The notes under the pieces were generated by a model, which saw only the letters and a list, made by a program, of their open reading frames with translations, made no database searches and had not been told where the DNA came from. Of a stretch of 38,876 nucleotides of DNA, positions 1 through 38,876 are shown in pieces. The position numbers were made by a program, and so were the translations under genes. How positions within the stretch are numbered: position 1 is the first letter of the stretch; every line of letters starts with the position of its first letter. The DNA comes from Shigella phage CT02. The stretch lies in sequence record OP917825; one strand, 5' to 3'.

Positions 1-429
1 GCAGCAACCTTCTTCTTGACTATGTGGGGTGGAATTCAGTGCTGGAAAACAGGATATGACGGTCAAAATCAAAACTTCGAGTTCACAAGGAACCCCGTGT
101 CCGATATCCGCCTCAAGAACATCACAGGTAAGGTAGACGGGGCAAAATGTCTCAATAGCATTGAGAGCATGAACTTCGTTGAGTTCACCTTTAAGCGCGA
201 TGCTAACAAGAAGGTTCGCCGTGGTGTTATTGCACAGGAAGTACAGAAGATTGACCCACAATACACTAGCCTGTCTGTCATGGAGGCCACCAACGAGACC
301 CCTCGTATGGAGACCTTACAGTTAGACCTCACGCCCATGACTCTGGATGCCCTAGCAGCAATCAAAGAGTTGTCGAGTCAGGTCAAGGAACTAAAGGCTG
401 AACTTAAACAACTCAAGGAAGCTAAATAA
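1..429 (+). CDS. Tail fiber (gp17-like), C-terminal fragment; reading frame is open at window start. Contains an intramolecular-chaperone / peptidase S74-type self-cleaving domain from about nt 100
   Basis: Frame 1 is open from nt 1 to the stop at 427-429. Motif NPVSDIRLKNI (S74-type Ser-Lys cleavage motif) followed by a strongly helical C-terminus (ALAAIKELSSQVKELKAELKQLKEAK). Sits immediately upstream of holin gene 17.5, as gene 17 does in T7-like genomes. Confidence 0.7.
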   Translation, partial: AATFFLTMWGGIQCWKTGYDGQNQNFEFTRNPVSDIRLKNITGKVDGAKCLNSIESMNFVEFTFKRDANKKVRRGVIAQEVQKIDPQYTSLSVMEATNETPRMETLQLDLTPMTLDALAAIKELSSQVKELKAELKQLKEAK

Positions 430-469
430 CAAAGAGGCCACGGACGGCCTCGATAATAAGGAGGGCACA

Positions 470-673
470 ATGTTGTCATTGGACTTTAATAATGAGTTAG
501 TCAAGGCCGCGCCGATTGTTGGTACGGGGGTAGCTGATGGTGCCGCCCGCCTATTCTTCGGGTTGAGTCTTAATGAGTGGTTCTACGTTGCAGCTATCGC
601 CTACACAGTGGTTCAGATTGGTGCCAAGGTAGTCGATAAGATGATTGACTGGAAACGTGCAAATAAGGAGTAA
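470..673 (+). CDS. Class II holin (gp17.5)
   Basis: 67-aa ORF with RBS AAGGAGG upstream; near-identical from memory to T7 gp17.5 (MLSLDFNNEL...); hydrophobic core. Confidence 0.85.
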   Translation: MLSLDFNNELVKAAPIVGTGVADGAARLFFGLSLNEWFYVAAIAYTVVQIGAKVVDKMIDWKRANKE

Positions 674-3223: not shown

Positions 3224-3303
3224 TTATGCATATTGAGTGCATAAGGAATCATTGAGACCACGGATGGTCACTTTAAGAAACTCCTTAAGAATCAATGAGT
3301 TTG

Positions 3304-3326
3304 CATTAACCCTCACTAAAGGGAGA
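3304..3326 (+). promoter_or_regulatory. T3-class phage RNAP promoter (phiOR position)
   Basis: CATTAACCCTCACTAAAGGGAGA matches the T3 promoter consensus; lies between genes 19 and 19.5. Confidence 0.7.
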
Positions 3327-3467
3327 GAGGGGACTTAAAGCTACTATATAGGTTAGTCATTCAGATTATGCAATGACCCTTTATGCACTTTAAGTCTACC
3401 TCTATGATTGGTGATATTATCATTGTATAATCACCCTACCTTAGAGCAACTGAAAGGAGGTGGCTCA

Positions 3468-3617
3468 ATGTTACGCTTGCTGATTGCCCTGCTGCGTCAT
3501 AGAGTCACTTGGCGATTTCTTCTGGTACTTACTGCTACCCTTGGGTACGCAGGTCTTACTGACCACCTCGGTCAACTGGAAGTGGCCTTTTGCTCTATAC
3601 TCTCTTGTGGGGATTAA
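3468..3617 (+). CDS. gp19.5-like small protein
   Basis: Internal ATG of ORF 3408..3617 preceded by RBS GGAGG; product MLRLLIALLRHRVTWRFL... resembles T7 gp19.5 (49 aa). Confidence 0.6.
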   Translation: MLRLLIALLRHRVTWRFLLVLTATLGYAGLTDHLGQLEVAFCSILSCGD

Positions 3618-3874
3618 ATTATTGTTGATGACCGACAAGCGGCTCTGAGGGATTCGTAGGTATAGTTTCACTACACCAACTCATCCCTGTAGAGTCAACC
3701 CTAAAGGTTATACCTAAAGATGCCCTGTAGTTCGTAATGGTCTTACAGGGTCTTCTGGTGTCTCCTAGATATCCCTTCGGGATGCGCCTGTGGTCTCACC
3801 TATGGTGTGGCCTTACCTAAAGTGGTTGCCTAAAGAGACCCTTTAAGAATTTACCACAAAAATCTGAATGGGTA

Positions 3875-4105
3875 TCTCACAGTTCAAGAACCCAAAGTAC
3901 CCCCATAGCCCTCCTAAAGCCACCTAAAGCCAGCCCTACCCCTCTGGTTTAACCTTCGGTTAACCTTGGGTATCTCCTCAAGTGGCCTATAGGATAGCCT
4001 AGAGTGTTGCCTAAAGTCAATACCTAAAGAGGTGGATGGCTTAAAGAGGCCTTAAAGAGTGTCCTAGTGTACCAGTTCGATAGTACATCTCTATGTGTCC
4101 CTATC
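3875..4105 (+). other. Inferred genome left end and terminal repeat (concatemer junction); exact repeat length not determinable from a single copy
   Basis: TCTCACAGTTCAAGAACCCAAAGTACCCCCATAG at 3875 resembles the T7/T3 genome left-end sequence; followed by CCTAAAG repeats and the phiOL promoter, as at the T7 left end. Confidence 0.4.
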
Positions 4106-4116
4106 TGTTAGTCATT

Positions 4117-4199
4117 CCTAAAGTAAACCTAAAGCCACTACCTAAAGACCAGACCTAAAGCCACCACCTAAAGACCAGACCTAAAGCCACCACCTAAAG
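4117..4199 (+). repeat. CCTAAAG heptamer array including a perfect 26-bp tandem duplication (4141..4166 and 4167..4192)
   Basis: Direct reading: CCTAAAGACCAGACCTAAAGCCACCA occurs twice in tandem; further CCTAAAG copies at 3700-3720, 3826-3845, 3905-3930, 4005-4060. Confidence 0.8.
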
Positions 4200-4287
4200 A
4201 GTGGAGCTATCTTAAAGACAACCAGACCGATAGACCCACTGTTAACCTGTAGTCTGTCCTGTAGTTTCCTATAACATCCAACGTTGT

Positions 4288-4310
4288 CTATTACCCTCAC
4301 TAAAGGGAAT
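4288..4310 (+). promoter_or_regulatory. T3-class phage RNAP promoter (phiOL position)
   Basis: TATTACCCTCACTAAAGGGAAT, a one-base-shorter variant of the consensus, upstream of the early region. Confidence 0.55.
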
Positions 4311-4363
4311 GAGGGATACTTAAAGAGGGAATAAAAGATTTAATAAAAGATTTAAATTAATGG

Positions 4364-4393
4364 TTGACTTTGAGTAACCCTTAAGGCTATTAT
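4364..4393 (+). promoter_or_regulatory. Sigma70 early promoter (A1-like)
   Basis: -35 TTGACT (4364-4369), 18-bp spacer, -10 TATTAT (4388-4393); position matches T7 A1. Confidence 0.55.
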
Positions 4394-4492
4394 TCATCTC
4401 GTCAACGGGACAACGGCCTTAAAGCCACTCCCTGAGATACCGGAGTCAACCGGATAAGTAGACAGCCTGATAAGTCATACGAAAAACAGGCA

Positions 4493-4522
4493 TTGACAAC
4501 ATGAAGTAACATGCAGTAAGAT
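4493..4522 (+). promoter_or_regulatory. Sigma70 early promoter (A2-like)
   Basis: -35 TTGACA, 18-bp spacer ACATGAAGTAACATGCAG, -10 TAAGAT; near-identical to recalled T7 A2. Confidence 0.7.
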
Positions 4523-4600
4523 GCACAGCGTCAACCGGACGGATACGGTGTCTTCTAGGTGACTTAAGCGCACCACGGCACATAAAGCGAGACAAAATGG

Positions 4601-4629
4601 TTGACAACATGAAGTAAGCACGGTACGAT
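4601..4629 (+). promoter_or_regulatory. Sigma70 early promoter (A3-like)
   Basis: -35 TTGACA, 17-bp spacer, -10 TACGAT; near-identical to recalled T7 A3. Confidence 0.7.
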
Positions 4630-4841
4630 GTGCCACATGAAAGACACCGAGTGTCGTAGGTGTAAAAACGCGACATAGTGGATAGATGGCGAAAGCACAA
4701 GCGACCACGATAATAAAGAGCTTGTCGCACTTATAACGCAAGTGACGGCTAACACTGAAATAGCCTCGGCTCGACGAAACTGTAGCCTAAAGTTCTTTAA
4801 CAATCTGGATAATAGCTCTTGAGTGTACCGTATAAGCGAAT

Positions 4842-4877
4842 AACTCAAGGTCGCACTGAAAGCGTGGCCTTTATGAT
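4842..4877 (+). promoter_or_regulatory. RNase III-type processing hairpin (R0.3-like)
   Basis: AACTCAAGGTCGCACTGAAAGCGTGGCCTTTATGAT; conserved flank family, upstream of gene 0.3. Confidence 0.55.
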
Positions 4878-4913
4878 ATTCACTTAACACGAACTAACAT
4901 GAGGTAATACCAA

Positions 4914-37462: not shown

Positions 37463-38876
37463 AGGAGGTCACATGGCTACAACTATTAAGACCGTGATGA
37501 CTTACCCGCTGGATGGCTCCACTACGGACTTCAATATTCCGTTTGAGTATCTGGCTCGTAAGTTCGTCCGAGTGACACTTATCGGCGTTGACCGAAAGGA
37601 ACTCACCTTGAATCAAGACTATCGTTTTGCAACTAAGACCACAATCTCCACAACGAGAGCACTGGGGCCAGCGGACGGTTATAACATGATTGAAATCCGT
37701 CGATTCACCTCCGCTACCGATAGGCTGGTTGACTTCACCGATGGTTCAATCCTACGAGCATACGACTTGAACATCTCACAGGTGCAGACGCTACACGTTG
37801 CAGAAGAGGCTCGTGACTTAACGGCTGATACCATTGGTGTGAACAACGATGGCAACCTTGATGCTCGTGGTCGTCGTATCATAAACGTAGCTGATGGTGT
37901 TGACCTCGGTGATGTTATCACTTTAGGTCAAGTCACTCGGTGGAACGAATCGGCACTGACCTCAAAGAACGCCGCAAAAGTCTCTGAGACCAACGCAAGG
38001 GCTTCCGAGAACAATGCGAAAACCTCTGAGACCAACGCAAAGAACTCTGAGAACCTAGCGCACGATTGGGCTCAGAAGGCCGAGGACGCTCCGGTGGCTG
38101 GATCTGAGTATTCCGCTTATCATTATTCCCGTAAGGCATCAACTAGTTCTACTGCGGCTGCTTCGAGTGCTGCTGCAAGTCTGGCCTCTCAGAACGCTGC
38201 GAAGGTCTCCGAGGATAAAGCCAAGGTCTCAGAGCAAAACGCTAAGGCTTCTGAGGTTTCCGCTAAGGCTGATGCTGAGCGAGCAGAACGTGAGGCTGAT
38301 AAGCTGGGTAACATGAACAACCTAGCAGCAAACATTGAGAGCGCGTCCGTTGACCCAAACGTTGTAATCTTCAAGGGTCGAGTGGTGTCTCGTGGTGATA
38401 TAATGGCTGCGACAAACCTACGCGGAGAACCCGCTGGTGGTACATGGTGGGGTACTCAAAGCCTAGTGTCTGTCGTGGAGGTTAACGGTAGGAAGCGTAT
38501 GCAGACACAACTGTATGCTGAGGGAACCGCTGGTGTAGATGACCGTAAGACTACGATAGCGTCCTATGAGTATGATTCCAATGAGAGAATTACTCGCTCA
38601 TCATATGTACACCTAATGCACAACACCTCTCGATGGTGGTCTAGGCAACACGGTGCTCTCGGTTATCAGACTGGATGGGACGACCCTACAAATAGCCGAC
38701 AGGCTCCCTATTGGGTAGACGATGTGGTAAATAATAACGATGGATGGGTTCCTGCGCTGTCTGTTCACTCAAGCTCAACTGGAGGATACCCTATCAGGGC
38801 TACTCAGGGTATCATTTCGCGTGGCCCTAACACTTGGCCAGACTTTGGTGTTCGCTTGTGTGGCGATAGGGGTAAG
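37463..38876 (+). CDS. Tail fiber (gene 17), N-terminal part; runs off the window end
   Basis: ATG 37463 after RBS AAGGAGG; first ~150 aa resemble the recalled T3/T7 gp17 tail-attachment domain (NIPFEYLARKFV.VTLIGVDRK...RLVDFTDGSILRAYDLN); no stop before the window end. Confidence 0.9.
37965..38290 (+). repeat. Imperfect tandem repeats encoding the coiled-coil heptad shaft of the fiber
   Basis: TCTGAGACCAACGCAA at 37983 and 38025 (42-bp spacing); encoded repeats AKVSETNARASENNAKTSETNAKNSEN and AKVSEDKAKVSEQNAKASEVSAKA. Confidence 0.6.

Follow-up and report, generated by a model that had tools for sequence, protein, structure and literature searches.

The window analysed here, 38,876 nucleotides of Shigella phage CT02 (sequence record OP917825), is the circularly permuted genome of a T3-like podophage, and its sequence begins and ends within gene 17, which encodes the tail fibre. 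Positions 1-429 are the 3' end of this gene, a point that was absent from the original prediction, which had been made from the sequence alone. Translation of frame 1 yielded 142 aa without stops (positions 1-426), followed by the TAA stop codon of gene 17 (427-429, + strand). The 5' part of the gene, codons 1-468, occupies positions 37473-38876 on the + strand; it starts with the ATG at 37473 and continues in frame at position 1, across the window junction, so that 468 plus 142 codons encode a protein of 610 aa. The join across the junction is real, because the joined protein was identical (100% identity, 100% length) to the deposited 'non-contractile tail fiber protein [Shigella phage CT02]' at NCBI, tblastn placed its residues 1-596 in one alignment on gp17 of Shigella phage ESh3, and gp17 clusters at 88%, 88% and 81% identity (P0002-P0004) were present on other contigs. 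The window corresponds to a complete T3-like genome of ~38.9 kb. The true genome ends and the terminal repeat must be placed in the ORF-poor stretch past the large terminase gene (3300-4900), and not at the window ends. A literature search found no publications on phage CT02.

Gene 16 is the upstream neighbour of gene 17, and the genes on its 3' side encode the holin, the small terminase, Rz/Rz1 and the large terminase. Just downstream of gene 17, many T3-like phages, phiYeO3-12 among them, share 97% identity with the backbone; over 24 kb, its identity to phages of the Teetrevirus type, isolated on Klebsiella, Serratia and Yersinia, was 95-97%. The next gene, gene 17.5 (class II holin; 470-673, + strand), was assigned from the ORF list and from its 97% identity to annotated T3-like holin/terminase regions. 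As this gene adjoins gene 17, the ORF list contained no separate fibre-chaperone gene between fibre and holin, which fits a chaperone supplied in cis. A GC-rich hairpin (434-451, + strand; dG -14.1 kcal/mol, z -2.75) with the sequence GAGGCC-ACGGAC-GGCCTC begins 5 nt 3' of the gene 17 stop codon, outside the region encoding the C-terminal domain discussed below and with no U-run on the + strand. It sits where DNA identity to other T3-like phages picks up again (435-457). No Rfam matches were obtained for the whole window, and in a scan of positions 1-1500 for sigma-70 promoters and terminators the number of sites was not above that in shuffled sequence. Further downstream, an 84-aa ORF (1148-1402) with a lipoprotein-like signal (…ISGCQS…) was noted in another frame inside the Rz-like gene (1018-1485); an Rz1 gene embedded in Rz is the usual spanin arrangement in T7-like phages.

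The protein is gp17 by position and N-terminus. Its gene lies between gene 16 and the holin gene 17.5, and its first 155 residues (37473-37937, + strand) form the Phage_T7_tail adaptor that docks the fibre on the tail (Pfam PF03906, E 1.1e-59), with 73-82% identity in Foldseek to the solved T7 gp17 N-termini 8dsp, 7ey9 and 7boz. The adaptor is followed by an alpha-helical shaft with an alanine/serine-rich repeat (aa ~151-287; 37923-38333, + strand), modelled by AlphaFold2 as helices at residues 151-205 and 218-287, although with low pLDDT in a monomer model. At the protein level, the shaft is common to T3-like relatives up to about aa 309-316. The distal receptor-binding region comes next. Its first part (aa 320-468; 38430-38876, + strand) is predicted to be all-beta and was delimited by BLASTP matches to the LTF of Salmonella phage Sw2 and by PHROGs matches; its last 33 residues (aa 469-501; 1-99, + strand) contain AlphaFold2 strands at fragment residues 3-6, 11-17 and 23-29, the fragment being the 142 residues encoded at the start of the window. 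Directly behind this predicted beta-structure, at the extreme C-terminus, lies the predicted intramolecular chaperone or peptidase S74 domain (aa 502-610 of 610; 100-426, + strand), which was delimited by its profile match, by the AlphaFold2 model and by Foldseek.

The gp17 proteins of T7 and T3 have the same N-terminal adaptor, the same shaft and the same gene order 16-17-17.5 as CT02, but their tips consist of gp37_trimer and gp37_C domains without S74, and they fold without a cleaved chaperone. A Pfam scan showed that both gp37 domains are absent from CT02 gp17. The CT02 protein is thus a gp17 with a different tip, and the statement in the original prediction that T3/T7 gp17 does not carry the C-terminal module was correct.

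The fragment matched the Pfam Peptidase_S74 profile (PF13884) with 48.9 bits (E 7.8e-13), compared with a gathering cut-off of 22 bits, over fragment residues 34-87, that is, protein residues 502-555 (core at 100-261). The full protein scored 44.4 bits, and the deposited CT02 fibre protein already has a precomputed PF13884 assignment. The profile search that had been proposed as a check was therefore positive, and the claim of an S74-type domain at the fibre C-terminus was borne out. The motif NPVSDIRLKNI is encoded at 91-123. The helical tail ALAAIKELSSQVKELKAELKQLKEAK, encoded at 349-426, does follow the motif as had been described, but the distance given (about 100 residues) was loose: the quoted tail begins 83 residues past the motif serine, and the predicted helix begins 76 residues past it. 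The size of the removable piece, given as the last ~110 residues, was accurate, as the segment S502-K610 comprises 109 aa with a calculated mass of 12.27 kDa. From the same calculation, the 67.0-kDa gp17 precursor would be divided into a 54.8-kDa mature fibre and the 12.27-kDa fragment.

PHROG tail-fibre families matched the fragment, down to E 1.5e-34. Its sequence matches in the PDB were an L-shaped fibre of the DT57C/T5 type (8hqz_d, E 6.8e-6), the distal fibre of phage S16 (6f45) and MYRF (7dc3). When 1.84 billion representatives were scanned exhaustively with HMMER, 774 relatives were retrieved at E<=1e-3, and among the best 150 of these 774 the match ended at most 25 aa from the C-terminus in 139. 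The motif itself is short, and this shortness is all that speaks for a chance resemblance within an unrelated fibre tip. Such a coincidence has a negligible probability and was refuted by the profile score, by the 774 representatives and by the fold match described below, which was restricted to chaperone domains.

The predicted catalytic residues were located by an alignment of the fragment with gp17 of ESh3, NJ2, JSS1 and phiYeO3-12, T5 pb1 and K1F gp17. In the stretch S502-D-I-R-L-K507, the predicted nucleophile and scissile residue Ser502 (codon tcc, 100-102, + strand) aligned with T5 pb1 S1264 and K1F S911, and the predicted general base Lys507 (codon aag, 115-117, + strand) aligned with T5 K1269 and K1F K916, column for column and with the same S-x4-K spacing. 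The T5 and K1F positions were obtained by residue count in the respective records, and S911/K916 is presumably the numbering of the K1F catalytic pair. Only four columns were invariant in this seven-sequence alignment, namely Ser34, Lys39, Gly75 and Gln79 in fragment numbering. The Ser, Asp and Lys of S-D-x-x-x-K were invariant in 43 gp17 relatives. Across 151 relatives (50%-identity representatives), the Ser was kept in 143, the Asp in 148 and the Lys in 149. The Ser-Lys site that had been likened to those of the endosialidase and of the T5 L-shaped fibre was thus confirmed, with regard both to its alignment and to its conservation.

In T5 pb1, the bond between Thr1263 and Ser1264 is cut, and Lys1269 activates Ser1264 (PMC4690869). 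This T5 structure paper cites the cleavage of the K1F endosialidase and states that the same mechanism was proposed for it (PMC4690869). From the position of the T5 Thr1263-Ser1264 bond we infer that the scissile bond of CT02 gp17 would be Val501-Ser502.

The 142-residue fragment was modelled with AlphaFold2 as a monomer, using 43 aligned relatives. The model reached a mean pLDDT of 86.6, and most of the chaperone domain exceeded 90. Three strands precede the Ser; they are followed, in this order, by a short helix, a helix/strand body, a beta-hairpin and a terminal helix of 32 residues. The predicted hairpin, or 'tentacle', spans fragment residues 89-108 (265-324, + strand), with strands at 89-94 and 103-108. 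The C-terminal amphipathic helix spans fragment residues 110-141 (328-423, + strand), has pLDDT values above 90 and carries TIVLK/LALLL at its heptad a/d positions; it is predicted to form a central trimeric coiled coil. In T5 pb1, residues 1371-1394 form a triple coiled coil, and hairpin 'tentacles' embrace the preceding domain (PMC4690869). The T5 chaperone domain and the CT02 model are alike in the order of their elements, with a hairpin body, then a tentacle hairpin and then a terminal helix, for which the coiled coil is a prediction in CT02. Foldseek against the PDB returned 7dc3 (MYRF ICA; E 1.4e-6, TM 0.62), 3gud (GA-1 neck-appendage chaperone) and 3gw6 (K1F chaperone), each with a probability of 1.0, and beyond these nothing better than E 0.18. 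The predicted fold therefore matched only solved intramolecular-chaperone domains, and the kinship with such domains that had been proposed from the letters alone also held at the level of the model.

Three relatives of the domain differ from CT02 gp17 in distinct ways. The K1F endosialidase is the gp17 of a T7-like phage and the founding member of the S74 family (PDB 3GW6), and like CT02 gp17 it combines a Phage_T7_tail N-terminus with a C-terminal Peptidase_S74 domain. It differs in its large endosialidase catalytic body, in the greater length of its chaperone domain (154 aa) and of the hairpins, and in sequence (17% identity); no enzymatic domain was detected in CT02 gp17 by the Pfam scan. 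The fibres of T5-like phages contain the closest chaperone sequences outside podophages, with 43-47% identity to CT02, but these L-shaped fibres serve as side fibres in siphophages, are 1000-1400 aa long and attach differently at the N-terminus, and T5 pb1 itself is only 18% identical. The best structural match, the ICA domain of the eukaryotic transcription factor MYRF, uses the same Ser-Lys dyad logic (PMC3742443). MYRF is a eukaryotic membrane protein whose cleavage frees a transcription factor, in contrast to the fibre maturation of the phages.

Another close relative is gp17 of the T3-like Yersinia phage phiYeO3-12 (Teetrevirus, 645 aa), which has the same gene position and N-terminus as CT02 gp17. 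The first 160 aa of the two proteins are nearly identical, identity is 54% over aa 1-404, and no BLASTP alignment was obtained past aa ~404. The phiYeO3-12 protein, which recognises the Yersinia O:3 O-antigen, also ends in a Peptidase_S74 domain (47.4 bits), but its distal part and chaperone are of a different lineage, with 28% identity over the last ~150 aa. Pyra et al. (2020) placed its S74 domain at aa 539-645 and reported a 58-kDa product together with a ~11-kDa fragment (PMC7582827). Filik et al. (2022) showed that recombinant phiYeO3-12 gp17 self-cleaves, with products of 57.423 and 12.242 kDa by mass spectrometry (PMC8739404). The identity of only 28% in the chaperone region weighs against this cleaved T3-like relative as a precedent for CT02.

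A Peptidase_S74 domain is not unusual on fibres of this type, and the implication that the module sets the CT02 fibre apart was not supported: it is present in phiYeO3-12, in K1F and, by precomputed PF13884 annotation, in at least 63 of the 120 gp17-like protein clusters nearest to the CT02 protein. This count is a lower bound, because two 555-aa gp17 relatives (P0032 and P0039), listed with the T7-tail domain only, scored 24.9 and 24.1 bits for Peptidase_S74 on direct scan, above the cut-off. The gp17 proteins of ESh3 (Shigella), NJ2 (Enterobacter) and JSS1, JSS2 and vB_CECAV_058 (Salmonella) have the same three-part architecture as CT02 gp17, with Phage_T7_tail and S74, in 609-623 aa; their overall identity to CT02 is 45-63%, and their receptor-binding regions and hosts differ. 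Among phages of the BASEL collection, a Teseptimavirus fibre has been described with a C-terminal intramolecular chaperone domain (PMC11990801). In the RBPseg atlas, S74 is a common C-terminal domain that is missing from the cryo-EM density of mature fibres (PMC12143355).

One element of the T5 site could not be placed in CT02. This is an arginine from an adjacent chain, which in K1F and T5 makes cleavage dependent on the correct folding of the trimer. In T5 pb1, the oxyanion hole is formed by Arg1250 of a neighbouring chain together with Asp1239 and Thr1263, and it senses correct folding (PMC4690869). In the sequence alignment, no arginine counterpart of T5 R1250 (-14 from the Ser) was evident in CT02, the aligned residue being Cys or Lys, and of 143 relatives only 2 had Arg at -14. 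Basic residues are often found at -4 in the relatives, and Arg occupies this position in both CT02 gp17 and phiYeO3-12 gp17. The failure to place the arginine sensor by alignment is no argument against cleavage. That the K1F/T5 'folding sensor' is not evidently conserved might nevertheless be taken to mean that the S74-like domain stays uncleaved, or is cleaved and remains attached, and would then permanently cap the mature fibre at its distal end. The ~11-12 kDa fragment was still present beside the fibre when phiYeO3-12 gp17 was purified. Against such a cap, phiYeO3-12 gp17 self-cleaves although it too lacks Arg at -14 and has Arg at -4, like CT02 gp17. The Ser, Asp and Lys of S-D-x-x-x-K are strictly kept in the subfamily of CT02 gp17, a pattern that would be expected only under selection for catalysis. 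In cryo-EM of an S74-bearing fibre from a BASEL phage, density for this domain was absent (PMC12143355). A permanent cap is accordingly regarded as improbable, and cleavage of the fibre in phage CT02 is very likely by analogy with its relatives.

The CT02 fibre has the S74 domain, with its conserved Ser/Lys pair and its predicted chaperone fold, at the extreme C-terminus of the protein. By analogy with cleaved fibres, we infer a chaperone role, a cut at the bond named above and a release from the virion; with high probability, aa 502-610 of CT02 gp17 would act as a self-cleaving intramolecular chaperone that releases itself after folding of the trimer. On the model of the K1F endosialidase and T5 pb1, the C-terminal domains would bring three nascent gp17 chains into register, and their terminal helices would associate in a three-stranded coiled coil. 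By gripping the distal beta-structure that precedes them, the beta-hairpins would act as a template for the folding of the trimeric receptor-binding tip. After correct folding of the trimer, Lys507 would activate Ser502, and Val501-Ser502 would be cut in each chain. The 12.3-kDa chaperone would then leave, and the 54.8-kDa subunit (residues 1-501) would stay on the virion.

Comparison with T3-like relatives showed that the CT02 fibre is a chimera, as judged from sequence, of a T3-type N-terminus and shaft joined to a distal cassette comprising receptor-binding region and chaperone. DNA identity to the T3-like relatives ends near window position 38095 (about aa 207), protein similarity ends at about aa 309-316, and DNA identity resumes at 435-457, just past the stop codon. 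The residues beyond the shaft (aa 320-606) matched the LTF of Salmonella phage Sw2 (aa 708-996) in one collinear block (BLASTP; 39% identity, E 4e-60), and the families phrog_5481, phrog_1980 and phrog_6921 also matched the distal receptor-binding region. By these sequence comparisons, the cassette of ~290 residues is common to CT02 gp17 and the L-shaped fibres of T5-like phages and is grafted onto the T3-type N-terminus and shaft. Many T5-like phages have fibres with 43-47% identity to the fragment, compared with only 28% for the phiYeO3-12 chaperone. Judging from these identities and the collinear Sw2 block, the chaperone appears to travel with its receptor-binding region, the two passing as one cassette between gp17 of podophages and the side fibres of siphophages. 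T3-like phages have at least two lineages of the chaperone.

A chimera of this kind could in principle be an assembly artefact, in which a T3-like genome was misjoined to a T5-like fragment. The break in the window's sequence does fall inside gene 17, and DNA similarity to T3-like phages is lost from about 38095 to about 435. The reading frame is nevertheless continuous, and the joined protein aligned end to end with ESh3 gp17. The cassette (aa 320-606) is a single block of homology with Sw2. As the junction (aa 468/469) falls within it, the junction coincides with neither homology breakpoint. The clusters P0002-P0004 exist at 88%, 88% and 81% identity, and the 609-623-aa architecture is found on many independent 37-42 kb contigs as well as in the isolated phages ESh3, NJ2, JSS1 and JSS2. 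Misassembly as the origin of the chimera is very improbable and was rejected on account of this recurrence in independent contigs and isolates.

The receptor-binding part of the cassette was examined in a full-length monomer model, in which aa 320-501 were predicted, at moderate confidence, to be all-beta, with pLDDT values of about 70-87. No solved relative of aa 320-501 was found in a PDB sequence search with aa 301-610, which hit chaperone regions only, and no Foldseek match in the PDB was obtained for aa 320-500 in this model. The Foldseek negative on the receptor-binding region is weak, as the full-length model was poor overall (mean pLDDT 62.6). Relatedness of aa 320-501 to the solved receptor-binding domain of T5 pb1 (aa 970-1263) was likewise not detected by PDB sequence search or Foldseek. 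It is conceivable, although rather unlikely, that the chaperone subfamily of some T3-like gp17 proteins and T5-like fibres, with no Arg at -14 and often a basic residue at -4, couples cleavage to trimer folding in a manner unlike K1F and T5, and that aa 320-501 represent a structurally uncharacterised fold which moves between podophages and siphophages with its own chaperone.

Ever since K1F, it has been known that fibres of T7-like phages can carry self-cleaving S74 chaperones, and for phiYeO3-12 this has been demonstrated biochemically. The S74 module on the CT02 fibre is already known in kind, as follows from the PF13884 assignment of the deposited protein and from the literature precedents, and it is ordinary, because the module is common and has already been shown to self-cleave in related phage fibres. 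Its value is limited to annotation and engineering, and current understanding is unchanged. For annotation, residue 501 is the expected last residue of the mature CT02 fibre. For engineering, residues 502-610 have to be retained in cis if recombinant receptor-binding constructs and fibre swaps are to fold, and the later loss of these residues is to be expected. The cassette, as an apparent unit of exchange, would be useful for retargeting T3/T7-type phages.

A further joint was noted in the comparison with Salmonella phage JSS1. The last 27 residues of CT02 gp17 are identical to those of JSS1 gp17, the rest of the distal module being only ~50% identical, and the DNA block from position 317 through the holin gene (window 317-654) is 83% identical to JSS1. 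This pattern points to a recombination joint within the region that encodes the chaperone domain.
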